Shown piece by piece: positions 8,533-57,355 of a stretch of DNA of 64,000 nt (positions are counted from its first letter, which is position 1; each line of letters begins with the position of its first letter). This DNA is from Gemmatimonadales bacterium (GTDB lineage: Bacteria > Gemmatimonadota > Gemmatimonadetes > Gemmatimonadales > JACORV01), in assembly GCA_035623395.1 (NCBI GenBank), contig DASPTN010000086.1, positions 97,606 through 161,605 on the forward strand, in the 5' to 3' direction. Below the pieces are notes generated by a model, which saw nothing but the letters and a program-made list of their open reading frames with translations, searched no databases and was not told the DNA's origin. Both the position numbers and the translations under genes were made by a program.

Positions 8533-11500
8533 ATGTTCCTTTCCGAGCTCTCGATCAAGCGGCCGGTGTTCGCCACCATGATGATGCTGGCGCTCATGGT
8601 GCTGGGCCTGTTCTCCCTGCGGCGCCTGAAGCTCGACGACATGCCCGACGTCGAGCTGCCCTTCCTGATGATCCAGGTCTCCTACCCGGGCGCGAGCACG
8701 GAGTCGGTCGAGCGCGACGTCACGAAGAAGATCGAGCAGGCCGTCAACCCGATCGAGGGCGTGGACCGCATCGAGTCGTCGTCGGTGGAGGGCTACTGCA
8801 CGATCTTCATCCAGTTCACGCTCAAGACGAAGATCGTCACCGCCCAGTCGGACGTGCGGTCGGCCGTGGACCGGATCCGCGCGGACCTGCCGACGGACAT
8901 CGACCCTCCGATCATCTCGCGCTTCGACTTCCGGCAGAACCCGATCATGAGCCTGTCCCTGTCCGGGCGGGACTGGGCGTTGCGCGACCTCACGACCCTG
9001 GCGAAGGAGACCATCACCCGCCGGCTCGAGACGGTGGACGGAGTCGGCAGCGTGACCGTCGTGGGCGGGCTGGAGCGGGAGATCCACGCGCTGCTGCTTC
9101 CGCCGCGGATGGACGCCCTCGGGGTGAGTCCGGACATGGTCGTCGCGGCCCTGCGACGCGAGAACATGGACATGCCGGCCGGCCGGGTGGAGCGTGGCAA
9201 CGGGGAGCAGCTGGTGCGGGTGAAGGGCCGCATCACGGATCCGGCGGCGTTCGCGTCGGTGGTCGTGACGTCGCGCAACGGAGTGCCGGTGCGGCTGGGC
9301 GAGGTCGCGAGGATCGAGGACGCGCAGGAGGAGGAGCGGAGCCTCGCCGAGTACTCGGGCCGGCGGGCGATCGGCATCGACATCCGGAAGGTGTCGGGCG
9401 CCAACACGGTGGACGTGGCGACGGGGATCCGGGCGGTGATGGCGCGGCTCAACGTGGAGCTGCCGCAGGGCGTGCAGCTGGAGGTGATCCGCGACAACTC
9501 GAAGTGGATCAAGGACTCCCTCGCCGACGTGCAGCTGGCGCTGGTGCTGGGCGCCCTGCTCACCGTGATGATCGTCTTCCTGTTCCTGAACTCCTGGCGG
9601 TCCACGGTCATCACGGGCCTCACGCTGCCCGTGTCCATCGTCTCCGCCTTCCTGGTCATCTACGCCATGGACTTCACCATCAACACGATGACCTTGATGG
9701 CGCTGTCCCTGGCGGTGGGCATCCTGATCGACGATGCCATCGTGGTCCGCGAGAACATCGTGCGGCACGTGGAGCGTGGCGAGGACCATCACACGGCCGC
9801 GGGTGCCGCCACCAGCGAGATCGGCTTCGCGGTGCTGGCCACCACGATGTCCATCCTGGCGGTGTTCGTGCCGGTGGGCTTCATGGGCGGGATCGTGGGC
9901 CGGTTCTTCTACCAGTTCGGCATCACGGTCGCGTTCGCCGTGGCGGTGTCGCTGTTCGTCTCGTTCACGCTCGACCCGATGCTGTCGTCGCTGTGGTACG
10001 ACCCGCAGGCGGCCGGCCACGCGGAGCGCGGCCCGATCGGCAAGCGGCTGGAGCGGTTCAACGACGCCTTCCGCGGCTACGGGCAGCGTTACCGCGGCGT
10101 GATCGCCTGGGCGCTCGATCACCGCGGATGGGTGATGGGCCTCGCGGGTGCCGCGTTCCTCGCGGCGATCGTGCTCATGGGCGTCGGGCTGGTCGGCGGC
10201 GGGTTCTTCCCGATCGTGGACCGGAGCGAGCTCAACGTCACGATCCAGACGCCGGTGGGCTCGTCGATCACCTACACGCGCGCCAAGGGCGAGGAGATCG
10301 ACCGGTACCTGCGGTCGCGGCCCGAGGTGGCCTACACCTACTTCACGATCGGCGGCGGCTACACGCCCAGCGTCACCGACGGCACGATCTACGTGCGGCT
10401 GAAGCCGAAGAGCGACCGGCACCTGTCGCAGGACAAGTTCCAGATCGCGCTGCGCGCGGTGCTGCCGTCCTTCAAGGGGGTCAAGACCGGGATCATGGAC
10501 GCGTCCGGCATGGGCGGCGGCCAGCTGCCGGTCCAGGTCAACGTCCTCGGGCCCGACATGACCCGCCTCCAGGAGTTGAACGACCGGATGATGGCGGCGA
10601 TCGGCGACGTGCGCGGCCTCGTGGACCTCAAGTCGAGCCTCGAGGGGCGGAAGCCCGAGTACGTGATCCAGGTCAATCGCGACCTCGCCGCCGACGTCGG
10701 TCTGTCCGTCGGGTCGATATCCGGCACGCTGCGGACGGTGCTCGCGGGCCAGACGGCCACGACCTTCGAGGACGCGGCGGGCTACAGCCACGACGTGGTG
10801 GTGCAGGTGGCGCCCGAGTACCGCACCTCGTTCACCGACCTCGGGAGGATCCCGATCGCGACGTCGAGCTTCAACGCGCGCACGCTCTCGCCGGTGATGG
10901 TGCCGCTGGGCCAGGTGGGCCAGATCGCGCCGTCAGGCGCCCCCGCCGAGATCAAGCGACTCTCGCTGGAGCGCTCGGCCCGGATCGAAGGCAACTACCA
11001 GGACCGGCCGCTGACCGGCGTCATGGGCGACATCCGCAAGCGCCTCGCCGCGGTGCCGCTGCCGCCGGGCTACCGGATCGACTACGGCGGCGAGCAGAAG
11101 AACTTCGCCGAGACCACCGGCTACGTGCTGGAATCCCTGACGCTGGCCATCATCTTCGTCTACCTGATCCTGGCCTCGCAGTTCGGGTCGTTCCTGCAGC
11201 CGCTGGCCATCATGCTCTCGCTGCCGCTGTCGATCGTCGGCGTGCTGGTCGCCCTGGCGCTCACGCGCGACACGCTCAACATCCTCAGCATGATCGGCGT
11301 GATCATGCTCATGGGACTGGTGACCAAGAACGCGATCCTGCTGGTGGACTTCGCGAACAAGGCGCGCGAGAGGGGAGCGACCCGCCGCCAGGCGCTGATC
11401 CAGGCGGGCGAGATCCGGTTCCGGCCGATCATGATGACCACGCTGTCGATGATCTTCGGAATGCTGCCCACCGCCCTGGCGCTGGGCGAGGGCGGCGAGT

Positions 11501-14698: not shown

Positions 14699-14968
14699 AT
14701 GGAACCTTCCCCGCGCTTCCCCTGGATGCAGGCGGCACTCCACCTCGGGCAGCTCGCCCGCGCGGGAGCGCGCTGGGAAGTGTACCTCCAGTCGGAGCCG
14801 CACCCGGACCTGGGCGCCATCCGCGGCCGCCTGCACTTCGTGTCCCGCGACCGGCATCGGGCCACGGCCTGGATCTTCCTTGAGTGGACGGCGAAGGAAG
14901 TGCTCGACCGCGCCCGCCAATTCTCCGCGGTCGAGCTGTGGAGTTTCCTCGAGGCCCTCGCCCCGTAG
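14699..14968 (+). CDS. Hypothetical small protein (89 aa)
   Basis: ORF starts 18 nt after the previous gene in the same orientation. No family recognised. Confidence 0.4.
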   Translation: MEPSPRFPWMQAALHLGQLARAGARWEVYLQSEPHPDLGAIRGRLHFVSRDRHRATAWIFLEWTAKEVLDRARQFSAVELWSFLEALAP

Positions 14969-15065: not shown

Positions 15066-15094
15066 TTGACACCCTGCACGACCGTGGCTAGCTT
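15066..15094 (+). promoter_or_regulatory. Sigma70-type promoter TTGACA-17 nt-TAGCTT for glnA
   Basis: TTGACA 15066..15071, 17-nt spacer, TAGCTT 15089..15094. GAGGA SD at 15112..15116 lies 7 nt before ATG 15124. Confidence 0.5.
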
Positions 15095-15123
15095 CGCCGA
15101 CTTCACCTGCCGAGGATCGCGAT

Positions 15124-16602
15124 ATGACCGTGGCCGCAACCAGGAATTCCTCCAAGCGCACGACCACCTCCAACGACAAGGCCTCCAGCCCGGCGGACGT
15201 GATCCGCCTCGCGAAGGAGACCGGCGTCCAGGTGGTGGACGTCCGCTTCACCGATCTGCCGGGCACCTGGCAGCACTTCTCGATTCCGGTCGGAGAGCTC
15301 AAGGAAGACATGTTCGAGGAAGGGCTCGGCTTCGACGGCTCGAGCATCCGCGGCTTCCAGGCCATCAACGAGAGCGACATGCTGCTGATGCCGGATCCGG
15401 CGTCCGCGTTCGTCGATCCGTGCCTGAAGGTGCCGACCCTGGTCCTGGTGTGCGACATCAAGGACCCCATCACGGGGGAGCGGTACAGCCGCGACCCGCG
15501 CTACGTGGCGCAGAAGGCCGAGCAGTACCTCGTCAAGAGCGGGATCGCGACCACGTCGTACTGGGGGCCGGAAGCCGAGTTCTACATCTTCAACTCGGTG
15601 CGCTTCGACCAGAACGCCCACGAGGGCTACTACCACATCGACTCGGAAGAGGGGATCTGGAACTCCGGCGAGGACAACGGGTCGCCGAACCTCGGGCACC
15701 GGCCACGGCACAAGGAAGGTTACTTCCCGGTGCCGCCGGTCGACCGGCTGCAGGACCTGCGGTCGAAGATCATGCTGGCCCTGATCGGGTCCGGCATCAA
15801 CGTCGAGGTGCAGCACCACGAGGTCGGGACGGCCGGCCAGGCCGAGATCGACATGCGGTTCGGAACGCTGGTCCGGATGGCGGACCAGGTCATGATGTAC
15901 AAGTACATCGTCAAGGGTGTGTGCCACGACAACGGCTACACGGCGACCTTCATGCCGAAGCCGATGTTCGGCGACAACGGCTCCGGGATGCATGTTCACC
16001 AGAGCCTGTGGAAGAACGGCACGAACCTGTTCTGGTCGGAACGGGGCTACGCCGGGCTGTCGGACATGGCGCGGTTCTACATCGGCGGCCTGATCAAGCA
16101 CGCCCCGGCGGTGCTCGCGTTCGCGGCGCCGACGACCAACTCGTACCGGCGGCTGGTGCCCGGATACGAGGCGCCGATCAATCTGATCTACTCGCAGCGC
16201 AACCGCAGCGCCGTGTGCCGGATTCCGATGTACTCGAAGTCGCCCAAGGCGAAGCGCATCGAGTTCCGCGCACCCGACCCGTCGTCGAACCCGTACCTGA
16301 CCTTCGCCGCGCTGCTGATGGCCGGTCTCGACGGCGTGAAGAACCGGATCGAGCCGCCGGCGCCGATCGACAAGGACCTCTACGATCTCGAGATGCACGA
16401 GCGCAAGCGGGTCAAGAACACGCCCGGCTCGCTGACCGAGGTGCTCGCGGCGCTGGAGAAGGACAGCGAATTCCTACTGCGTGGCGCAGTATTCACGCAG
16501 GACCTGCTCGACACGTGGATCGAGTACAAGACGAAGAAGGAGGTCGAGCCAGTAGCGCTCCGGCCGCATCCGTACGAGTTTTTCCTGTACTACGACGGAT
16601 GA
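15124..16602 (+). CDS. glnA: Glutamine synthetase type I-beta (adenylylation-type)
   Basis: Full-length GS signature (FTDLPGTWQHF, GFDGSSIRGF, MPKPMFGDNGSGMHVHQSLW, NSYRRLVPGYEAP). The IDKDLYDLE motif matches the Tyr adenylylation loop of E. coli-type GlnA. Confidence 0.95.
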   Translation: MTVAATRNSSKRTTTSNDKASSPADVIRLAKETGVQVVDVRFTDLPGTWQHFSIPVGELKEDMFEEGLGFDGSSIRGFQAINESDMLLMPDPASAFVDPCLKVPTLVLVCDIKDPITGERYSRDPRYVAQKAEQYLVKSGIATTSYWGPEAEFYIFNSVRFDQNAHEGYYHIDSEEGIWNSGEDNGSPNLGHRPRHKEGYFPVPPVDRLQDLRSKIMLALIGSGINVEVQHHEVGTAGQAEIDMRFGTLVRMADQVMMYKYIVKGVCHDNGYTATFMPKPMFGDNGSGMHVHQSLWKNGTNLFWSERGYAGLSDMARFYIGGLIKHAPAVLAFAAPTTNSYRRLVPGYEAPINLIYSQRNRSAVCRIPMYSKSPKAKRIEFRAPDPSSNPYLTFAALLMAGLDGVKNRIEPPAPIDKDLYDLEMHERKRVKNTPGSLTEVLAALEKDSEFLLRGAVFTQDLLDTWIEYKTKKEVEPVALRPHPYEFFLYYDG

Positions 16603-16624
16603 GCCGGTTCCCGCTCAACATGGA

Positions 16625-18100
16625 GTGCCAATGACCCCACGGGCGCGCAGGGTGCGCGCGGCGGTGTCAGGCGAGGCGGGCGCGACGGTCGTCGCGCCCG
16701 TTTCGTCTCATGCCGTGATGCGACCGTTGCCCATGGCCCTGGATGCCGACTACCGCGCGATGGTGCGGTCGAAGGACATCACCAAGGCCGACATCCTGGA
16801 GGTGTGCGACCGCCTCGGCGTGCGCTTCCTCCGGCTCCAGTTCACCGACATCCTCGGCGTGGTGAAGAACGTCGAGGTGCCGCGCAGTCAGTTCGAGAAG
16901 GCGCTCGACGCGCAGATCATGTTCGACGGCTCGTCGATCGAAGGCTTCGTCCGGATCGAGGAGTCGGACATGCTGCTCGCCCCGGACCTCGGCACCTTCC
17001 GGATCTTCCCCTGGGGCGCCGAGAGCGGGCTGGTGGCGCGGCTGATCTGCGACATCCGCAACACCGACGAGTCGGACTTCGCCGGCTGCCCGCGGCTGGC
17101 GCTCAAGCGGCAGGTGGCGCGGGCCCAGAAGCTCGGCTACACGATGATGGCCGGCGTGGAGGCCGAGTTCTTCCTGTTCTACAAGGACGCGCACGGCGAC
17201 CCGACCACCGAGGTGCACGACGTCGCCGGCTACTTCGACGTGGGCCCGGTGGACCGCGGCGAGCAGGCGCGACAGCTGATCGTGGCCGATCTCGAAGAGA
17301 TGGGCTTCGAGGTCGAGGCGGCGCACCACGAGGTGGCGCCCGGACAGCACGAGGTGGATTTCCGCTACGCCGACGCGCTCGAAACCGCCGACGACCTCTC
17401 GACGTTCCGGGTGGTCGTGCGGAGCGCCGCGGAGCGCTACGACCTCGTCGCGTCCTTCATGCCCAAGCCGATCTTCGGGCAGAACGGCTCGGGCATGCAC
17501 ACCCACCAGAGCCTGTTCAGAAACAGCAGTAACGCGTTCTACGACGCCAAGGCCGACTGGCAGCTGTCGAAGGTGGCGCTGCAGTACATCGCGGGGCTGC
17601 TTGAGCACGCGCGCGGCTTCTGCGCGGTCACGAACCCGCTGGTGAACAGCTTCAAGCGCCTGGTGCCGGGTTACGAGGCGCCGGTCAACATCGCCTGGAG
17701 CATGAAGAACCGCTCGCCGATGATCCGGATCCCGGATCGCCGCGAATCGGGAACGCGCTGCGAACTGCGGATGCCCGATCCGTCGGCCAACCCGTACCTG
17801 GCGCTCGCGGTGCAGCTCGCGGCGGGCCTGGACGGAATCGAGCGCAAGCTGACGCCGCCCGACCCGGTGAACAAGAACATCTTCACGATGACGTACCGGG
17901 AGCGCCGGCACCACCGGATCGACGACCTGCCCCGGGACCTGCACGAGGCGCTGGATTGCCTCGAGAGGGACCCGGTGATTTTGGGTGCGCTCGGCGAGCA
18001 CATCGCCGGCCGCTACGTCGAGGCCAAGCGCGCGGAGTGGGCGGAGTACATCTCGCAGGTCAGCGAGTGGGAGATCAGGAAGTATCTGGGACAGTACTGA
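16625..18100 (+). CDS. Glutamine synthetase type I-alpha (Bacillus-type paralogue)
   Basis: RLQFTDILGVVKNVEVP, MFDGSSIEGFVRIEESDM, HHEVAPGQHEVDF and NSFKRLVPGYEAP closely follow the B. subtilis GlnA pattern, and there is no adenylylation Tyr motif. The start is ambiguous: ATG 16625 has GGAG, while ATG 16733 and 16760 fit homologue length better. Confidence 0.9.
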   Translation: MPMTPRARRVRAAVSGEAGATVVAPVSSHAVMRPLPMALDADYRAMVRSKDITKADILEVCDRLGVRFLRLQFTDILGVVKNVEVPRSQFEKALDAQIMFDGSSIEGFVRIEESDMLLAPDLGTFRIFPWGAESGLVARLICDIRNTDESDFAGCPRLALKRQVARAQKLGYTMMAGVEAEFFLFYKDAHGDPTTEVHDVAGYFDVGPVDRGEQARQLIVADLEEMGFEVEAAHHEVAPGQHEVDFRYADALETADDLSTFRVVVRSAAERYDLVASFMPKPIFGQNGSGMHTHQSLFRNSSNAFYDAKADWQLSKVALQYIAGLLEHARGFCAVTNPLVNSFKRLVPGYEAPVNIAWSMKNRSPMIRIPDRRESGTRCELRMPDPSANPYLALAVQLAAGLDGIERKLTPPDPVNKNIFTMTYRERRHHRIDDLPRDLHEALDCLERDPVILGALGEHIAGRYVEAKRAEWAEYISQVSEWEIRKYLGQY

Positions 18101-18998: not shown

Positions 18999-21143
18999 CT
19001 ACTGGGCGGCCAGCGTCATGCCCAGATTCCTGACCAGGAACGCCCACCGGTCGCTCACCAGCTCGATCTGCTTCGACACGGGCATGCCGCCGCCGTGGCC
19101 CGCGCGGGTCTCGATCCGGATCAGGACCGGCGCCGGTCCCGCCTGCGCCGCCTGAAGCGTCGCCGCGTACTTGAACGAGTGGCCGGGCACGACCCGGTCG
19201 TCGTGGTCGGCGGTCGTGACCAGCGTGGCCGGATAGGTGGTGCCGGCGCGGATGTTCTGGAGCGGCGAATAGGCGTACAGGTACGGGAACTGGCTGGCGC
19301 TGTCGGACGAGCCGTACTCGGTCACCCACGCCCAGCCGATGGTGAACTTCTGGAAGCGCAGCATGTCCATCACGCCCACCGCCGGAAGCGCGGCGCCGAA
19401 CAGGTCGGGGCGCTCGTTCTCGACCGCGCCGATCAGCAGGCCGCCGTTCGACGCGCCCTCAATCGCCAGCCTGGCCGACCGCGTCCAGCCCTGGTTCACC
19501 AGGTACTCCGCCGCCGCGATGAAGTCGTCGAAGACGTTCTGCTTGTGCTCGTGCATCCCGGCGCGGTGCCAGTCCTCGCCGTACTCGCCGCCGCCGCGGA
19601 TGTTGGCCAGGGCCAGGACGCCCCCCATCTCGAGCCACACGGCGTCGGCCACGGAGAAGTAGGGCAGGTTGCTGATGTCGAAGCCGCCGTACGCGGTGAG
19701 CAGCACGGGGTTGGCGCTGTCTCTCGTGGCGCCGCGGCGGTGGGTGAGGAACATCGGCACCCGAGTGCCGTCCTTGCTGCGGTAGAACGCCTGCTCCGTC
19801 TCGTAGCCGCTCGGGTCGAAGTCGAGGTGCGGCGCCTTCCAGGCGGCCCCCGCCCCGCTCGCGACGTCGTAGCGGAAGATGGTCGTCGGGAAGAGGAACG
19901 AGGTGAACGCGTAGAACATCTCCGGGCCGTCGGCCCGGCCGCTCACGGCCCCGACGGTACCGATCCCCGGCAGGGCCACGTCTCCGACGAGCCGGCCGCC
20001 CGTGTCGAAGATCGCCAGGCGGCTGTGGGCGTCCTGCAGGTACTGGGCGACGAAGCGGCCGCCGACCAGCGTTACGCCGTCCAGAACCTGTTCGGTCTGC
20101 GGGACGATCTCCTTCCAGGCGCCGCGGGCGGGATGGCGCGTGTTGATCGCGACGAGCCGTCCGCGCGGGGCGTCCAGGTTGGTGGTGAAGTAGAAGACGG
20201 GGCCGACGCTCCCCACGAACCCGTAGCTCGCGTCGAAGCCGTCCAGCAACCGCACCATCCGGCCCGTGATCCTCGGATGCCGCGCGCTGCCCAGATCCTG
20301 GTAGTAGACCCGGTTCCGCGAGTCGGTGCCCAGCGAGACGTAGACGATCAGGTACCGGCCGTCCTCGGTGACGCTGCCGCCGAAACCCCAGTCGGGCTGG
20401 TCCGGGCGGGCGTACACCAGGCGGTCCAGGGACTGGCGCGTGCCGAGGCGGTGGTAGTAGAGCCTCTGATTCTTCACGACAGCCCGCAGGACGTTGCCCG
20501 CGGGCGTCGGGTACCGGCTGTAGTAGAACCCGGCGTCGTCGTGGGTCCAGGAGAGGCCCGAGAACTTGACCCACCGCAGCCGGTCCGGCAGATCGCGCCC
20601 GGTGGCGATGCGGCGCACGTGCAACTCGTTCCAGTCGGACCCGGCGGCTGCCGTCCCGTACCCGAAGTAGCGTCCGTCGTGTGACACGTCCCAGCTGGTC
20701 AGCGCGACGGTGCCGTCCGGCGAGAGCGTATTGGGGTCGATCAGCAGCTGCGGCGGGGCGTCGAGGGACCGCTGCCAGTAGTAGACCGGCTGATTCTGGA
20801 GGCCGTCGTTCCGCGTGTAGACGTAGGTGCCGCCTTCGCGGCCCGGCACCCCGTAGCGCTCATAGTTCCACAGCCTGGTGAGGCGATCGCGGATGCGCGC
20901 CCGCTCCGGGATCCCGGCCAGGTAGGCGAACGTCACGCAGTTCTCCGCTTCCACCCAGGCCTTGGTCTCCGGCGCGTCCGTGTTCTCGAGCCAGCGGTAC
21001 GGGTCGCGGACCTGGGTGCCGAAGAAGCTGTCCACCTGGCTGTCGGCGCGCGCCACCGGCCTGGCGCAGCCGGGCGTCTGAGCGCGCGCGGCAGGGGCGA
21101 CGAGCGCGGAAAGCGCCGCGAGGCGAAGGAGAGTCGTGCGCAT
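18999..21143 (-). CDS. Prolyl oligopeptidase (S9A) family serine peptidase, secreted
   Basis: ORF trimmed to ATG 21143 (MRTTLLRLAALSALVAPAARAQ signal peptide). DPYRWLEN N-terminal motif, beta-propeller region and catalytic GASNGGLL. Confidence 0.9.
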   Translation of the reverse strand: MRTTLLRLAALSALVAPAARAQTPGCARPVARADSQVDSFFGTQVRDPYRWLENTDAPETKAWVEAENCVTFAYLAGIPERARIRDRLTRLWNYERYGVPGREGGTYVYTRNDGLQNQPVYYWQRSLDAPPQLLIDPNTLSPDGTVALTSWDVSHDGRYFGYGTAAAGSDWNELHVRRIATGRDLPDRLRWVKFSGLSWTHDDAGFYYSRYPTPAGNVLRAVVKNQRLYYHRLGTRQSLDRLVYARPDQPDWGFGGSVTEDGRYLIVYVSLGTDSRNRVYYQDLGSARHPRITGRMVRLLDGFDASYGFVGSVGPVFYFTTNLDAPRGRLVAINTRHPARGAWKEIVPQTEQVLDGVTLVGGRFVAQYLQDAHSRLAIFDTGGRLVGDVALPGIGTVGAVSGRADGPEMFYAFTSFLFPTTIFRYDVASGAGAAWKAPHLDFDPSGYETEQAFYRSKDGTRVPMFLTHRRGATRDSANPVLLTAYGGFDISNLPYFSVADAVWLEMGGVLALANIRGGGEYGEDWHRAGMHEHKQNVFDDFIAAAEYLVNQGWTRSARLAIEGASNGGLLIGAVENERPDLFGAALPAVGVMDMLRFQKFTIGWAWVTEYGSSDSASQFPYLYAYSPLQNIRAGTTYPATLVTTADHDDRVVPGHSFKYAATLQAAQAGPAPVLIRIETRAGHGGGMPVSKQIELVSDRWAFLVRNLGMTLAAQ

Positions 21144-39806: not shown

Positions 39807-41909
39807 ATGAAGGAATACCCGAGCACACATATCCGGAACGTGGCCGTAGTCGGCCACGGAGGCAGCGGCAAGACCAGCCTGGTCGATGCCCTCGCCTTCG
39901 TGGCCGGAAGCAGCAAGCGGCACGGTCGCATCAAGGAAGGCTCCGCCCTCACCGACTACTCCCCCGACGAGATCGAACGCGGATACAGCATCAGCCTCGC
40001 CCTGGCCCACGCGGAGTGGGAGGGCGTGAAGATCAACCTCGTCGACACGCCCGGGTACCTGGATTTCGCCGGTGACGCGCTGGCGGGAGTCTACGCGGCC
40101 GACGCGTCGCTGATCGTGCTGGGGGCGTCGTCGGGCGTCGAGACCGGCACCGAGAAGGTGTGGGAGTATTCCCGGGCCTGCGAGCACGAGGCGATCTTCT
40201 TCGTCTCGATGATGGACAAGGAGCACGCGGATTTCGCGAAGGTCTACGGGCAGATCCGCGAGCGCCTGACGCCGAAGGCGATTCCCGTCGAGATCCCGAT
40301 CGGCGCCGGCCCGCAGTTCCGCGGCATCGTCAACCTGATCAGCCGCAAGGCGCACATGTACAAGCCCGGCACCAAGACGGGCGAGTACGACGAGCAGGAC
40401 ATCCCCAAGGAGCTGCAGGCCGAGTACGAGCGGTACGAGAACGACCTAATCGAGACGGTGGCCTCGACCGACGACGCGCTGGTGGAGCAGTACCTCGAGG
40501 GCAAGGAGATCTCGCACGACGACCTGGTGACGGCGATGCGCGCGGCGATGAAGCGGCGCGAGCTGTTCCCGGTGCTGTGCGGCGCCGCCGAGCTGACGTA
40601 CGGGGCGCGGGCGCTGCTGTCGGAGATCGTCGAGCTGGTGCCGCCGCCCTCCGACAACCCGCCCGCGCACGCGGAGAAGTGGGGCAGCGCCGACAAGGTG
40701 GAGATTGCCGAGCGCGACGACGCGCCGTTCAGCGCGCTGGTGTTCAAGACCGTCTCCGAGCCGCACGTCGGCGACGTGTCGCTGTTCCGCATTTACTCCG
40801 GGACGGTGAAGAACGGCCAGGAGGTGTACAACGCCGCGCGCAGCGCGCCGGAGAAGCTCAACCACCTCTCGGTGGCGCAGGGCAAGGACAAGCTCGAGGT
40901 GGACGGGCTGCACGCGGGCGACATCGGGGTGATCGCCAAGCTGCGGGACACCCACACCAACGACACCCTGTGCACCCAGGCGCATCAGGTCGTCCTGCCG
41001 CGGATCCCGTTCCCCGAGCCGATCATCCACGTCGCGATCGAGGCCAAGGAGCGCGGCGACGAGGAGAAGATCAACCTCGGCCTGGCGCGGCTCACCGAGG
41101 AGGACCCGACCTTCCACTGGGAGTACAACCCGGACGTCCGGCAGACCTGGATCTACGGCCTGGGCGAGCGGCACCTCGAGGTGGTGCTGGGCCGCCTGGC
41201 GCGGAAGTTCGGCGTGCACGCGACGCAGGCCAAGCCGAAGATCCCCTACCGGGAGACGATCAAGGGCAAGGCCGAGGGCCAGGGCCGGCACAAGAAGCAG
41301 ACCGGCGGGCGCGGCCAGTTCGGCGACTGCTGGATCCGGATGGCGCCGCTGCCGCGCGGCGGGGGGTACGTGTTCGAGGATCAGATCGTCGGCGGCTCGA
41401 TCCCCAGCAAGTTCATCCCGGCGGTGGACCGTGGCATCCAGGAGGCCGCGGTCCGCGGCATCCTCGCGGGCTGCCCGGTGGTGGACTTCAAGGTGGAGCT
41501 GTTCGACGGCTCCTACCACACGGTGGACTCGAACGAGATGTCGTTCAAGCTCGCGGGCATCCTCGCGTTCCGGAACGTGTCCCCCAACTGCAAGCCGGTG
41601 CTGCTCGAGCCGCTGTCGGACCTCGAGGTCCAGGTGCCCGAGGAGTACCTCGGCGCGGTGATGGGAGACCTGAACAGCCGGCGCGGCCAGATCCTGGGGT
41701 CGGAGCCCGACGAGAAGATGCTGAGGCTGAAGGCGGTGGTGCCGGAGGCGGAGCTCTACAAGTACGCCACGCAGCTCCACTCCCTGACGCAGGGGCGCGG
41801 CACCTTCCGGAGGAAGTTCAAGGGATACGCCGAGGTGCCGCCCGACGCCGCGGCCAAGGTCATCGACGAGTACCAGAAGTCCAAGAAGGAAAAGGAAGAG
41901 GAAGCCTGA
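39807..41909 (+). CDS. Elongation factor G paralogue (EF-G2-like translational GTPase)
   Basis: G1 VVGHGGSGKTSL, DTPGYLDF, five-domain length (700 aa), and domain IV/V motifs (HTVDSNEMSFKLAG). The G1 motif deviates from canonical AHIDAGKTT in the way EF-G2 does. Confidence 0.85.
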   Translation: MKEYPSTHIRNVAVVGHGGSGKTSLVDALAFVAGSSKRHGRIKEGSALTDYSPDEIERGYSISLALAHAEWEGVKINLVDTPGYLDFAGDALAGVYAADASLIVLGASSGVETGTEKVWEYSRACEHEAIFFVSMMDKEHADFAKVYGQIRERLTPKAIPVEIPIGAGPQFRGIVNLISRKAHMYKPGTKTGEYDEQDIPKELQAEYERYENDLIETVASTDDALVEQYLEGKEISHDDLVTAMRAAMKRRELFPVLCGAAELTYGARALLSEIVELVPPPSDNPPAHAEKWGSADKVEIAERDDAPFSALVFKTVSEPHVGDVSLFRIYSGTVKNGQEVYNAARSAPEKLNHLSVAQGKDKLEVDGLHAGDIGVIAKLRDTHTNDTLCTQAHQVVLPRIPFPEPIIHVAIEAKERGDEEKINLGLARLTEEDPTFHWEYNPDVRQTWIYGLGERHLEVVLGRLARKFGVHATQAKPKIPYRETIKGKAEGQGRHKKQTGGRGQFGDCWIRMAPLPRGGGYVFEDQIVGGSIPSKFIPAVDRGIQEAAVRGILAGCPVVDFKVELFDGSYHTVDSNEMSFKLAGILAFRNVSPNCKPVLLEPLSDLEVQVPEEYLGAVMGDLNSRRGQILGSEPDEKMLRLKAVVPEAELYKYATQLHSLTQGRGTFRRKFKGYAEVPPDAAAKVIDEYQKSKKEKEEEA

Positions 41910-42764: not shown

Positions 42765-44372
42765 TCACGCCGCCGCGGGCGCCAGCGACAACCGGAACAC
42801 GCCCCAGGCCGCGGAGCGCTCGACCTCGCGCAGCCGCGCGGCGATCTCGGCCGGGATCGGCGGAGCGGCCGCGCCGACCTTGAGCATCGAGGCGTCGAGC
42901 TTCGCGCCCGGCGCCGGCACCTTCACGCCCGGGTTGAGGATCCCCGCCGGGTCCCACGCCTCCTTGGTGCGCCGGCACAGGTCGGCGTAGCCCTCGCCGA
43001 ACGTCGACGCCAGGAAGGGCGCGCGCAGCCGTCCGTCGCCGTGCTCGCCCGACGGCGTTCCCCCGAGCGACAGCTGGGCTCCGGTCACCGCCTCGAGGCA
43101 TCCGAACAGGCGAGTGGCGAAATCGGGCGCCGCGACGTTGGCCAGCACGTTGGCGTGGAGATGCCCGTCCCCGGCGTGCCCGAAGATCACGATCTCGAAG
43201 CCGAACGCGGCCGCCGCCTCGCGGAGCGCACGGATGTAGCGGCCGAGGACCGCGACCGGCACGCAGCCGTCCTCGACCAGCTGCAGCGAGCGGAGGTTGT
43301 TCGGCAGCGACGCCAGGATGGGGCTCGCGAGGTGACGGAGCTCCCACAGCCGGCTCACCGACGCGACGTCGTCGGCCAGCTCGGTCGTCTCGGCGAGGCC
43401 CCGCACCGCGCCGACGGCCTGGTGTCCGTCGCTCTCGAACTCGACCAGCAGGACCGCCTCGGTGCCGTCGGGCACCCGGCGCTGGATGGCGCCGCGCACG
43501 AAATCGAGATAGGTGCGGTCCAGCAGCTCGATCGCCGAGGGCCCGTGCGGGCGCAGCGCGAGCACCGCGGGCCCGACGTCGTCGAGCGAGCGCAACGTCA
43601 CGAGCAGCGTGGAGCGATCGTCCGGCAGCGGCGCGAGGGCGACCTCGACGGCGGTCACGACGGCCAGCGTGCCCTCGCTGCCGGTCAGCAGCTCGGCCGT
43701 GCGCCCGCTGGCGGCGTACGCGTCGAGCGCGTAGCCGGCGGAGTTCTTGGTCGTGCGGGGCACCGCGCCGGCCAGGTCCGCGGCGCGCTCGCGGAGACCC
43801 GGAGCCACTTCGCGCAGGAACCGTTGCTCGGCCGCCGTCGGCGGCGGCAGGCTCGCGGCGCCGTCGACCGCGCCGGCTTCGCCGTCGGCCGTCACGAACT
43901 CCAGGCCACGCACCCAGCGCCGCATCGCGCCGTACTTCACGCTGTGCGCGCCGGCGGCGTTGGTGGCGACCATGCCGCCCAGCGTGCAGAACGCGCCGCT
44001 CGACGGGTCCGGCGGCAGCCTGAGCCCGTAGCCGGCGGCGGCAGCGTTGAGCGCCTGGTACGTGATGGACGCACCGCACCGCGCCGTCCCCGCCGCCGCG
44101 TCGATCGCCGGCGGCTCACGGAAGCCTGCCGAGAGGTCCACCACGACGCCGGGGCCGATGTTCCCGCCGGGCATCCCGCTGCCGGCGCCCCGGGGCACCA
44201 GGGCGTGCCCGCCGGCCCGGGCCCAGTGCACGAGCGCGACCAGGTCGTCGCGGCCCGCCGGCACGGCGACGGCCTCGGGTACGATGCGGAAAATGCCCGC
44301 GCCCTCGGCGTACAGGGCGCGGGCGACGTCGTCGGTGCGGAACTCTCCGCGGAAGCCGGGGGGGGCGCGCAC
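42765..44372 (-). CDS. FAD-linked oxidase (GlcD/D-lactate dehydrogenase-like)
   Basis: FAD_binding_4 pattern (VPRGAGSGMPGGNIG) and a C-terminal FAD-oxidase_C region (GTPSGEHGDGRLR). Confidence 0.8.
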   Translation of the reverse strand: MRAPPGFRGEFRTDDVARALYAEGAGIFRIVPEAVAVPAGRDDLVALVHWARAGGHALVPRGAGSGMPGGNIGPGVVVDLSAGFREPPAIDAAAGTARCGASITYQALNAAAAGYGLRLPPDPSSGAFCTLGGMVATNAAGAHSVKYGAMRRWVRGLEFVTADGEAGAVDGAASLPPPTAAEQRFLREVAPGLRERAADLAGAVPRTTKNSAGYALDAYAASGRTAELLTGSEGTLAVVTAVEVALAPLPDDRSTLLVTLRSLDDVGPAVLALRPHGPSAIELLDRTYLDFVRGAIQRRVPDGTEAVLLVEFESDGHQAVGAVRGLAETTELADDVASVSRLWELRHLASPILASLPNNLRSLQLVEDGCVPVAVLGRYIRALREAAAAFGFEIVIFGHAGDGHLHANVLANVAAPDFATRLFGCLEAVTGAQLSLGGTPSGEHGDGRLRAPFLASTFGEGYADLCRRTKEAWDPAGILNPGVKVPAPGAKLDASMLKVGAAAPPIPAEIAARLREVERSAAWGVFRLSLAPAAA

Positions 44373-55009: not shown

Positions 55010-55201
55010 TCAACCGTCCCAGGGTGGTTCGGCCTCTCCCCGATCGTCGATCTGCTGGCCATGCCGCACGTGCCGGTCGAGGCACTTGGGGCAGTAATAC
55101 AGCCCCTCGAGGTGGTCGTCGCGGACCAGGTCCTCGGTCGCACCACAATAGACGCAAGCAGCGGCGTCAGCCGTCACTTTGATTTCGCGCTCACGGGCCA
55201 T
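55010..55201 (-). CDS. Small zinc-ribbon protein (63 aa)
   Basis: ORF trimmed to ATG 55201. CVYCG...CPKC forms a four-Cys knuckle pair. Lies between selD and rnhA in the same orientation. Confidence 0.5.
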   Translation of the reverse strand: MAREREIKVTADAAACVYCGATEDLVRDDHLEGLYYCPKCLDRHVRHGQQIDDRGEAEPPWDG

Positions 55202-55278
55202 TCGACACCCCCCCGTCGAAGATAGCGCCGGCAGGCGGGGTGAGCACAGTCGGTCAGCTGACGACATTGCCGATCAAA

Positions 55279-56379
55279 TCACTTGGCATTCGGGGGCCCG
55301 CTGCCCGCGTGGACCGAAATCGAGCCGGGGCGCCCCTTTACGACCGTGCCGATCTCGGCGGCCGCCAGCGTGCCGTGCTCGGCGAGGAGCTCGAGCAGCC
55401 GGGGGAGAGCAGCTCGGGGAACGGCGAGCAGCAGCCCGCCCGAGGTTTGCGCATCGGCCAGCAGCAGCCGCTCGACCTCGTCCAGGGCCGGGTCCCAGGC
55501 GGTCGCCTCGTTGGCGGCCGCGAGATTGCGCCGCGTGCCGCCCGGCACGTGTCCCTGCTCGGCGAGCCGACGAGCTCCGGGGAGCCGCGGCACCGCGCCG
55601 GCCCACAGCTCCGCGGCGGCACCGCCCGCGCTCAACATCGAGGAAAGGTGCCCCAGGAGCCCGAAGCCCGTGACGTCCGTCGCCGCTCGCACGCCCGCAG
55701 CAGAGGCGGCGGCTGCGGCGCCGTCGTTGAGCGTCGTCATCGACTGGATGGAAGCGTGAACGGCGTCGTCCGGTGCGACGCCTTTCTTGATCGCGGTGGT
55801 CACGATGCCGGTGCCGATCGGCTTCGTGAGGACCAGCCGGTCGCCGGGCTGCGCGCCGGCATTGGTGGTCAGGCGGTCGGGATGAACCTCGCCGACGACC
55901 ATGAGTCCGTACTTCGGCTCCGGATCGTCGATCGAGTGGCCGCCCAGGATCCGCGCGCCGGCCCGAGCCACCATGTCCGCACCGCCCCGCAGCACCTCGC
56001 CGAGCGCGTCGAGCGGCAACCGGTCGCGCGGCCAGCCGACCACGTTGAGGCACCACAGCGGCCGCCCACCCATGGCGTAGACGTCCGACAGCGCGTTGGC
56101 CGCGGCGATCTGTCCGAAGGTGTACGGGTCATCCACGATCGGCGTGAAGAAGTCGGTCGTGAGGATGAGCGCGCGGTCGGCCGCGATCCGCACGACGGCC
56201 GCGTCGTCCCGGCTGCTGGCATCCACCAGCACGGCCGGGTCGGTCCCGGGCGGGACGGACGGCACGAAGCGCAGGACCTGCGCCAGCTCAGCGGGGCCGA
56301 GTTTGCAGGCTCAACCCGCGCCGTGGGAGTACGAGGTGAGCCGGATGCGGTCGCGCGGATTGGGTGTCTGGTCCGTCAT
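55279..56379 (-). CDS. selD: Selenide, water dikinase (selenophosphate synthetase), Sec-containing: in-frame TGA at 56313..56311
   Basis: ORFs 56311..56586 and 55279..56265 are in one frame separated only by a TGA. Read-through gives MTDQTPNPRDRIRLTSYSHGAG-U-ACKLGPAELAQVL..., then the AIR-synthase-like PurM fold (DDAAVV, DFFTPIVDDPYTFGQIAAANALSDVYAMGG). Confidence 0.88.
56269..56301 (-). promoter_or_regulatory. Candidate SECIS region downstream of the selD UGA
   Basis: On the mRNA: UGA, then 9 nt, then CUCGGC-CCC-GCUGAG (56301..56287), then CUG, then GCGCAG-GUC-CUGCGC (56283..56269). The second loop contains G-U about 30 nt from the UGA. Confidence 0.45.
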
Positions 56380-56458
56380 GGTGGCACCTCGACGGCGGGT
56401 GTCCTGCGGCCTACGCTTTGTCCTCGCAACTCGGCGTCTCGCGACTCGCAGCGGTCGT

Positions 56459-57355
56459 TCACGCGTACTCGCGGGCGATGAGCCAGGCGCGGAGCGAGGA
56501 GAGCGTGCGCTCCTCGGCATACGGCCCGCTGCCGACGGTGCCCTTCTGCGTCTGCATCTTGGCGAGCCGCGGCGCGGCCAGCGCAACCGCTTCCTTGGCC
56601 TGGGGCAACGGCACCGCCACCAGCGCGTCCACGGCGTGGACGATGTCGAGATTGCGCCAGGATCCGTCCGGCTTCTGGTTCAGGGCCAGATGCTCGGCCA
56701 GGATCGGCAGCTGGCCGCGGAACGGGGGCGGCGCCCAGGCGATCGCGGAGAGGGCGCCCACGGTGAGCGTCGGCGCCCACAGTCCGCCCCAGGAATCCCA
56801 CATCTTGGGGAGCGCGAGCAGCGAGCCCACGTGGCGCCGCACCAGCGTTCGGTCCTCCTCCCCGGCCCTGAGGACCGTCCGGAGCGCGAGGCACGATGCG
56901 AGGAACCGCGCCCCCTGGTCCGAGTTCACGGTGGCCCCGGTGGGAAGGGTGAGCCGCCGCACCGTCCTTCCGGACGAGCGGTACGAGAAGAAGCCACCGA
57001 TGGCGTGCTCGCACAGCTTGAGCTCGTGCCGGCGCGGCGTGCAGCCCTCGGCATAAGCGCCGTCCTTCTCCTGGCGACCGAGGATCCAGGTCACCAGCCG
57101 CCTGACCGCGTGCGCCGAAGGCGGGGCGCCGAGATCCATCAGCTCCCACGCCACCCAGGCGGTGGAGACCAGGTCGCCCGCCACGCTTCCGTCGGAGCGG
57201 ATGCGCGATCGGCGCTCCTTCATCAGCGCCTCGGCTAGGCGTTCATCGTCGCCGCGCGGGCTGCCGAGCAGCCGGCGCGCCACGAAGCCCTGCCGGGTGT
57301 CGCGTGCGGCGAAGTAGGCGCCCACCCGTTCGATCGCGACATGTACGGGATTCAT
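56459..57355 (-). CDS. Prenyltransferase/squalene-oxidase-repeat-like (alpha/alpha toroid) protein
   Basis: 298 aa with QW-like repeats (GRQEKDGAYAEG, NQKPDGSWRN) and helical-repeat composition. Family call is tentative. Confidence 0.5.
   Translation of the reverse strand: MNPVHVAIERVGAYFAARDTRQGFVARRLLGSPRGDDERLAEALMKERRSRIRSDGSVAGDLVSTAWVAWELMDLGAPPSAHAVRRLVTWILGRQEKDGAYAEGCTPRRHELKLCEHAIGGFFSYRSSGRTVRRLTLPTGATVNSDQGARFLASCLALRTVLRAGEEDRTLVRRHVGSLLALPKMWDSWGGLWAPTLTVGALSAIAWAPPPFRGQLPILAEHLALNQKPDGSWRNLDIVHAVDALVAVPLPQAKEAVALAAPRLAKMQTQKGTVGSGPYAEERTLSSLRAWLIAREYA

Follow-up and report, generated by a model that had tools for sequence, protein, structure and literature searches.

Known Sec-type SelD proteins and the gene analyzed

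No bacterial selenoprotein families are more widespread than FdhA and SelD, and every selenocysteine (Sec)-using bacterium analyzed had one or both (PMC1794560). SelD ranks second in extent among the selenoprotein families of prokaryotes and carries its Sec in an N-terminal loop (PMC13188914); its frequent misannotation has been stated explicitly (PMC13326102). This work concerns a gene for SelD, the selenophosphate synthetase, on the minus strand of a 64,000-nucleotide (nt) stretch of contig DASPTN010000086.1 (assembly GCA_035623395.1) of an uncultured Gemmatimonadales bacterium; this whole stretch is referred to as the window. An in-frame TGA interrupts the gene, and an earlier note on the same DNA had proposed that selD is itself a selenoprotein gene. 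The SelD profile score, the conservation of the UGA column among related loci, and the covariation of a hairpin 3' of the UGA all support this proposal.

In Sec-type SelD proteins, such as those of Anaeromyxobacter, Geobacter, Clostridia, and Aquifex aeolicus, the UGA lies at the same G-U-x-x-K column, and a Sec insertion sequence (SECIS) is found within the coding sequence (CDS), directly 3' of the UGA. The window gene belongs to the same family and differs from these known cases only in its host lineage. The SelD of A. aeolicus (2yye/2zod), which we take to be natively a selenoprotein, was also matched by the window protein, and the selD genes of Anaeromyxobacter and Desulfosporosinus were also scored by the covariance model built in this work. 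Cys-type SelD proteins (E. coli, 3u0o; Gemmatimonadales, P0093/P0097) have in common with the window protein an alignment over the whole length, the SHGAG-C-xCK loop, and both AIRS domains, but their genes possess TGC or TGT instead of TGA. The reference bacterial SECIS is that of E. coli fdhF, a stem-loop within the CDS just 3' of the UGA, with the apical sequence GCA-GGUC-UGC.

Layout of the gene and identity of its product

The earlier note had read the open reading frame (ORF) entries 56311..56586 and 55279..56265 as two pieces of one frame, separated only by the TGA at 56313..56311. These coordinates proved exact, and the re-read sequence gave the claimed read-through product, MTDQTPNPRDRIRLTSYSHGAG-U-ACKLGPAELAQVLRFVPSVPPG..., which in a longer form of its continuation reads MTDQTPNPRDRIRLTSYSHGAG-U-ACKLGPAELAQVLRF. 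The frame starts with the ATG at 56379..56377, passes through the in-frame TGA, and ends with the terminal TGA at 55281..55279. The features of the gene are the following.

55279..56379, minus strand: complete selD CDS through the internal UGA, 366 codons including the predicted Sec23, plus the stop
56387..56390, minus strand: GAGG motif resembling a Shine-Dalgarno sequence, 7 nt 5' of the ATG, with a putative function as such
56377..56379, minus strand: ATG, the true start codon, with an equivalent start in close relatives (MADEPLNQ.., MAADQPVSP..)
56311..56313, minus strand: in-frame UGA, predicted to encode Sec23, the catalytic residue of the glycine-rich loop, as placed by alignment to Cys-type SelD
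56302..56304, minus strand: AAA codon of Lys26, which aligns with the catalytic Lys20 of E. coli SelD in 3u0o (GAGCGCK)
56285..56303, minus strand: hairpin 1, located between UGA and SECIS, a putative accessory or spacer helix with the core CUCGGC-CCC-GCUGAG at 56301..56287
56268..56284, minus strand: hairpin 2, the predicted SECIS proper, with a 7-bp stem GGCGCAG/CUGCGCU and the loop GUC at 56277..56275
56263..56265, minus strand: GTG, the false start used by automatic callers, giving a product of 328 amino acids (aa) that lacks the active-site loop
55279..55281, minus strand: terminal TGA, the ordinary stop of selD, as read from the sequence

The predicted product is identified as a full-length SelD by profiles and by alignment with E. 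coli SelD. With Cys put in for the UGA, it scored 400.5 bits with TIGR00476 (selD; cut-off 125) over residues 13-323 and 382.9 bits with NF002098 (cut-off 299), and the TIGR00476 match begins upstream of the UGA. The alignment with E. coli SelD (PDB 3u0o) reached 284 bits over residues 10-354 and placed U23 on Cys17 and K26 on Lys20. The active-site loop SHGAG-U-ACK pairs with SHGAG-C-GCK of 3u0o, where the reading YSHGAGCGCK given in the earlier note was confirmed, and with GAGCACK of Cys-type relatives. Full-length Cys-type Gemmatimonadales relatives, which share 63-68% identity with the window protein, read RLTSYSHGAGCACKLGP at the active-site column. The TGA thus occupies the catalytic Cys/Sec column, as had been claimed, since it aligns with the first Cys of GAGCxCK in these relatives and with Cys17 of the E. 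coli protein. Both AIRS and AIRS_C domains (PF00586 and PF02769) are recorded for the identical 328-aa product. The Lys26 codon has invariant first and second bases in an alignment of 42 Sec-type sequences. The guanine-plus-cytosine (GC) content of the window is 71.6%, and the GC values at third and second codon positions (GC3 and GC2) are of the coding type on both sides of the UGA.

Conservation of the UGA and of the segment upstream of it

A scan of one genome per GTDB species provided 80 related SelD loci. Their active-site codon was TGA in 60 cases and TGC or TGT in 16, and 4 loci were left without an assignment. The TGA-type loci belong to at least six phyla and were found in Gemmatimonadota, Chloroflexota, Actinomycetota, Methylomirabilota, Anaeromyxobacter, Latescibacterota, Desulfosporosinus, and Dehalobacter. 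All four closest Gemmatimonadota relatives, with 79-83% identity, possess the TGA.

The segment 5' of the TGA is conserved as well. Over the 13 codons that precede it, the comparison of the window with the four closest relatives revealed 12 synonymous and 5 non-synonymous codon changes, and the sequence IRLTSYSHGAG is kept among these relatives. Each of the four has its own in-frame ATG, which in three of them (L001, L003, and L004) is preceded by a GAGG-like motif at a comparable distance. Since the upstream codons are conserved and changes are mostly synonymous, this segment is concluded to be translated in frame with the rest of the gene, and the substitution pattern indicates that these codons are under purifying selection. 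The earlier note had considered a frame-disrupted N terminus in close relatives as a sign of a decayed 5' end; the N-terminal codons are conserved instead.

The 34 high-confidence ORFs of the window end with TAG in 18 cases and with TGA in 16, selD included, and TAA is not used. Given that 16 of these ORFs terminate at TGA, UGA is not generally reassigned in the window. As for the remaining stop usage, the zero count of TAA is unsurprising at 72% GC, and the frequency of TAG is notable.

Hairpin 2 as the predicted SECIS element

The earlier note had described two hairpins 3' of the UGA, CUCGGC-CCC-GCUGAG at 56301..56287 and GCGCAG-GUC-CUGCGC at 56283..56269, and had preferred the second, with GU in its loop, as the SECIS candidate. 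Both positions were found to be exact. The core of hairpin 2 gains one G-U pair, which extends it to 56284..56268. The hairpin itself is 26 nt from the UGA, and its loop G is 33 nt past the UGA, close to the distance of about 30 nt noted before. The published model of bacterial SECIS (bSECIS) elements, which goes back to the consensus of Zhang and Gladyshev, asks for a 3-9 nt loop with a G among its first two positions, a 4-16 bp stem, a UGA-to-loop spacing of 16-37 nt, and a minimum free energy (MFE) of at most -7.5 kcal/mol (PMC13188914). Hairpin 2 agrees with every one of these constraints, with its loop GUC, its 7-bp stem, the 33-nt spacing, and an MFE of -9.6 kcal/mol.

Comparative analysis singled out this hairpin. 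RNAalifold, applied to the ungapped alignment of the 42 Sec-type sequences, predicted exactly one helix, which is hairpin 2 at 56284..56268, and the 42-sequence alignments show no variation in its loop G and U. Covariation was evaluated on 61 Sec-type sequences, 57 of them distinct, against 500 shuffles. Among the distinct sequences, 92% of the cells of hairpin 2 are paired, and five of the seven pairs have changed on both sides. There are 23 cells with changes on both sides, compared to 4.3 +/- 1.8 in the shuffled data, and 16 further pair types, compared to 10.3; none of the 500 shuffles was as high for either measure. When the partner strand was slid by 1-3 columns, only 29-54% of the cells were paired. 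The most telling pair joins the silent third base of an Ala codon (codon positions 31-33) to the first base of the codon that follows four positions later, in the following combinations.

Ala GCG with CGC/CGT (Arg): 43 sequences
Ala GCC with GGC (Gly): 3 sequences
Ala GCU with AGU (Ser): 2 sequences
Ala GCA with UGC/UGU (Cys): 2 sequences

In one further sequence, Ser UCC replaces the Ala codon and pairs with GGG (Gly). The partner codon hence tracks the silent base of the Ala codon, which implies that the amino acid changes so that the base pair is kept.

As a control, 12 Cys-type genes with similar protein constraints were analyzed; the columns of hairpin 2 are 57% paired in these genes, which is no better than in shuffles. 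For the 17-nt hairpin, Sec-type sequences have a median energy of -9.4 kcal/mol, as opposed to -3.25 kcal/mol for Cys-type sequences. The earlier note had suggested the use of a covariance model on this region. A model constructed from the 42 Sec-type sequences identified one site in the window, with 68.9 bits, the next best match reaching 9.9 bits; 19 held-out Sec-type loci, including those of low-GC Firmicutes, scored 31.7-61.9 bits, whereas Cys-type loci did not exceed 26.9 bits. The check was thus positive for this model, whereas the Rfam models gave no match, as detailed below. Taken as a comparative prediction, hairpin 2 is the SECIS element of selD and is specific to Sec-type genes. Its apical sequence GCA-GGUCC-UGC resembles the GCA-GGUC-UGC of fdhF, with the loop G and U in common. 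The two elements differ in that the window stem has no bulged U and in that the loop G is at position 37 counted from the U of the UGA, compared to position 23 in fdhF, the gap being filled by a separate hairpin.

Several Cys-type genes have structures of their own in this region. The selD of Pseudonocardia locus L043 shows a partial hairpin of -7.4 kcal/mol at the SECIS position (L043:10067-10113), which may have been left by a Sec-to-Cys conversion such as has been reported for SelD (PMC1794560). The Cys-type (TGT) selD genes of two Bacteroidales loci, L017 and L021, display an apparent hairpin at the position of hairpin 1 (GCUGCGGCCGCAGGAGC, at about 10040-10100) and nothing like hairpin 2; they scored 25.7-26.9 bits with the covariance model.

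Probable Sec decoding in the lineage

A close relative provides further information on Sec usage. The JGI contig L086 encodes a SelD with 78% identity and a neighboring protein with 84% identity to the 298-aa protein encoded upstream of the window selD, and the upstream gene order is the same. Two HdrA-like genes, located 3.6 and 8.9 kb downstream of selD in an insert that is missing in the window, are each interrupted by an in-frame TGA.

L086:14603-17668: HdrA-like gene 1, TGA at 14789, split by gene callers into 62 + 952 aa
L086:19329-20948: HdrA-like gene 2, TGA at 19935, split by gene callers into 202 + 583 aa

Both TGA codons lie within DKT(F/Y)PTMDCSI-U-ILGPKA, and their column corresponds to the Cys of DCSICIL in the HdrA structure 5odc (410 bits). 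Two hairpins come after each TGA; the second is GGAUGCC-GGUC-GGCAUCC and has its loop 27 nt past the UGA. HdrA is a recognized selenoprotein family (PMC1794560). These two genes, each with a UGA and hairpins, suggest that the lineage decodes Sec in at least two protein families. By analogy with the established bacterial Sec pathway, selA, selB, and selC would be expected elsewhere in the host genome; the HdrA-like pair lends indirect support to the expectation of the earlier note that these genes and probably further UGA-containing ones are present there.

In other lineages, genes of this pathway are found next to selD: selA lies beside the Sec-type selD in Desulfosporosinus and Dehalobacter, and tRNA-Sec, selA, and selB are adjacent to the Cys-type selD of Pseudonocardia (L043, L049, L062, and L073). 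In the corresponding search for the window, tblastn was run with the SelA and SelB of E. coli, and ARAGORN was applied to the window together with 87 loci. The only tRNA detected in the window, by ARAGORN and Rfam alike, was a tRNA-Cys(GCA). Three additional close-relative loci, L086 among them, contained no sel machinery genes, and the scan of 38 further window ORFs revealed no selenium-related family. In no other window gene does coding sequence continue across a TGA, which leaves selD as the only convincing case. Two candidates were set aside: a weak SelB-like match at 39840..40157 corresponds to elongation factor EF-G (878 bits), and the in-frame TGA that lies between two genes at 42767 is a normal stop with non-coding sequence after it.

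Weighing of the explanations

We consider it about 90% probable, judged from the comparative sequence data, that the gene encodes a full-length SelD with a UGA-encoded Sec23 and that recoding is directed by hairpin 2. Gene identity, the position of the UGA on the Cys/Sec column, the conservation of the UGA, the selection upstream of it, and the Sec-type-specific covariation of hairpin 2 are directly supported. In the proposed mechanism, the UGA at 56313..56311 would be read as the catalytic Sec23, with SelB carrying Sec-tRNA(Sec) delivering Sec in place of termination, and hairpin 1 (56303..56285) would probably act as a folded spacer or lower helix. SelB binding and the actual insertion of Sec would be expected from the established bacterial Sec pathway.

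A number of observations weigh against this explanation. No selA, selB, or tRNA-Sec was detected in the 64-kb window, and in the Gemmatimonadota loci examined none of them lies within 10 kb of selD. The 33-nt spacing exceeds that of E. coli fdhF and falls close to the upper end of the published range (16-37 nt). The single-sequence fold did no better than chance in this 72% GC DNA (z = +1.07 over the first 67 nt past the UGA and -1.9 over 121 nt), so that it is the comparative data alone that mark the hairpin as more than a chance structure. Because hairpin 2 lies within the CDS, part of its conservation is due to protein constraint, and the shuffle control leaves phylogenetic relatedness in the covariation counts. 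Lastly, Rfam detected no family for the selD region (56150..56450) even at E <= 10, the matches being at chance level, and the whole window at gathering thresholds gave nothing except the tRNA-Cys. This blank means that no curated model covers the element, not that the element is absent. The only two chance-level Rfam matches in the region were a snoRNA and a Guanidine-II (mini-ykkC) match inside selD (56199-56252, minus strand; 14.3 bits compared to a gathering threshold of 32, E = 1.3), the latter based on two GGGAC-GAC-type hairpins and almost certainly due to chance in GC-rich coding DNA.

The gene might instead be truncated or decaying, with translation stopping at the UGA or starting at the GTG at 56265 and the 5' segment being a relic, and both the annotation of the 328-aa form in public assemblies and the lack of visible Sec machinery within the window would agree with this. 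However, such a product would lack the glycine-rich loop together with the catalytic Cys/Sec and Lys (Cys17 and Lys20 in E. coli). A relic would show neither the conserved upstream codons and the in-frame ATG kept in relatives nor a TGA at the same column in 60 loci of many phyla, followed by a Sec-type-specific hairpin with compensatory changes; truncation is therefore contradicted by the comparative data, and we regard it as highly improbable. The chance that sequencing or assembly mistakenly turned a TGC or TGT into this TGA is close to negligible: a single base separates these codons, but the identical coding sequence with the same false start is present on three independently assembled ENA contigs, truncated proteins of about 100% identity occur in the JGI data, and the TGA is found in all four closest GTDB relatives. 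A different residue could also be inserted at the UGA, since the sequence alone does not decide which one it is: Cys via a tRNA(Sec)-like tRNA(Cys) and SelB, Trp or Cys by near-cognate suppression, or the residue of a reassigned code. In some bacteria, a selC-like tRNA(Cys) has been proposed to insert Cys at UGA in a SelB-dependent manner. The stop usage described above excludes a reassigned code, and the window contains no tRNA other than an ordinary tRNA-Cys(GCA). The element downstream of the UGA agrees with the SelB-type SECIS model (PMC13188914) and also occurs in lineages known for Sec-containing SelD, such as Anaeromyxobacter (PMC1794560, Table 3). Read-through with a residue other than Sec is consequently very unlikely, and nothing favors its variant with a SelB-like machinery.

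The alternative that concerns the recoding signal itself is that hairpin 2 alone is not what SelB recognizes; the target could be hairpin 1 or a composite with hairpin 1 setting the distance of hairpin 2 from the UGA. Hairpin 1 has an MFE of -7.1 kcal/mol, and its pairing is 73-82% in Sec-type sequences (73% of cells in the 61-sequence set), compared to 59% in Cys-type sequences. Five of its eight pairs have changed on both sides, including a concerted change from CUC..GAG to AUC..GAU, and 26 cells show changes on both sides, compared to 16.8 in shuffles (2 of 500 as high); sliding the partner by 1-3 columns reduced pairing to 19-39%. A SelD SECIS example from Acetomicrobium in BSepDB contains, in our own reading of the printed sequence, a hairpin GGUCC-GGC-GGACC at about 18 nt past the UGA, which is the position of hairpin 1, so that the SelD family may use either site, and two hairpins follow the UGA in both HdrA-like genes of L086. 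On the other hand, the loop CCC of hairpin 1 in the window contains no G and thus violates the bSECIS loop rule, RNAalifold did not predict this helix, its further pair types are not above shuffles (12 compared to 12.2; 360 of 500), and 27% of the Sec-type cells are unpaired. Hairpin 1 is hence probably a spacer or lower helix rather than the element bound by SelB, and recognition of something other than hairpin 2 alone appears unlikely. Somewhat more doubtful still is the specific proposal of a composite two-hairpin element across at least six phyla, in which hairpin 1 folds and so brings hairpin 2 to an effective ribosomal distance. If true, such an arrangement would differ in architecture from the single stem-loop of the fdhF type, and the two-hairpin layout of the L086 HdrA-like genes would then be a lineage-wide design.

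Misannotation and significance

No concept is changed by the present case, as earlier work has documented Sec-type SelD along with its SECIS and its frequent misannotation (PMC1794560, PMC13188914, PMC13326102). In the literature and supplements on Gemmatimonadota, no published statement on Sec use was found; the selD described here adds this lineage to the map of selenium use. The main value is a correction of annotation, since all public assemblies examined call this gene, and most of its close relatives, without the catalytic loop. The earlier note had anticipated a truncation at 56265 by automatic callers, with loss of the active-site loop. This is indeed the case on three ENA metagenome contigs, which carry exactly this selD, called as 328 aa from the GTG at 56265. 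Almost all close homologues (>70% identity) are likewise recorded as proteins of 310-328 aa without the active-site segment, the form that results when gene callers break at a TGA. As a consequence of such truncated calls, pipelines under-report functional SelD and miss Sec use by soil and fen Gemmatimonadales. The covariance model and the alignment could be used to flag Sec-type selD automatically.

Genomic neighborhood

The neighbors of selD are unrelated to selenium and include a hypothetical 298-aa protein, an amidohydrolase, a DUF4332 protein, an RNase H, a cupredoxin, and a zinc-ribbon protein. The two adjacent genes are as follows.

56459-57355, minus strand: 298-aa hypothetical protein without Pfam or NCBIfam matches, on the strand of selD and 79 nt upstream of it
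55010-55267, minus strand: CxxC...CxxC zinc-ribbon-like ORF of 85 aa (63 aa in public calls), directly downstream of selD

Homologues of the 298-aa protein with 38-46% identity are encoded within 1-2 kb upstream of selD in the diverged Gemmatimonadota loci L005, L008, and L056. The family has 184 database matches; the named ones are from Gemmatimonadales or Gemmatimonadetes, and a few carry PF13243, a squalene-cyclase-type repeat. A role of this protein as a selenium-related partner was considered and set aside in favor of conserved synteny, as the family is restricted to Gemmatimonadales and its homologue P0224 is seemingly encoded near a Cys-type selD. The latter is suggested by the longest contig of P0224 (27,314 bp), which is shared with the Cys-type SelD P0095. 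The zinc-ribbon-like ORF is conserved only in a close clade (L001-L004, L085, and L087). Elsewhere in the window, two tandem paralogues of type I glutamine synthetase (GlnA) are encoded at 15070-16602 and 16556-18100 on the plus strand; they scored 654 and 528 bits with TIGR00653, both above the cut-off.

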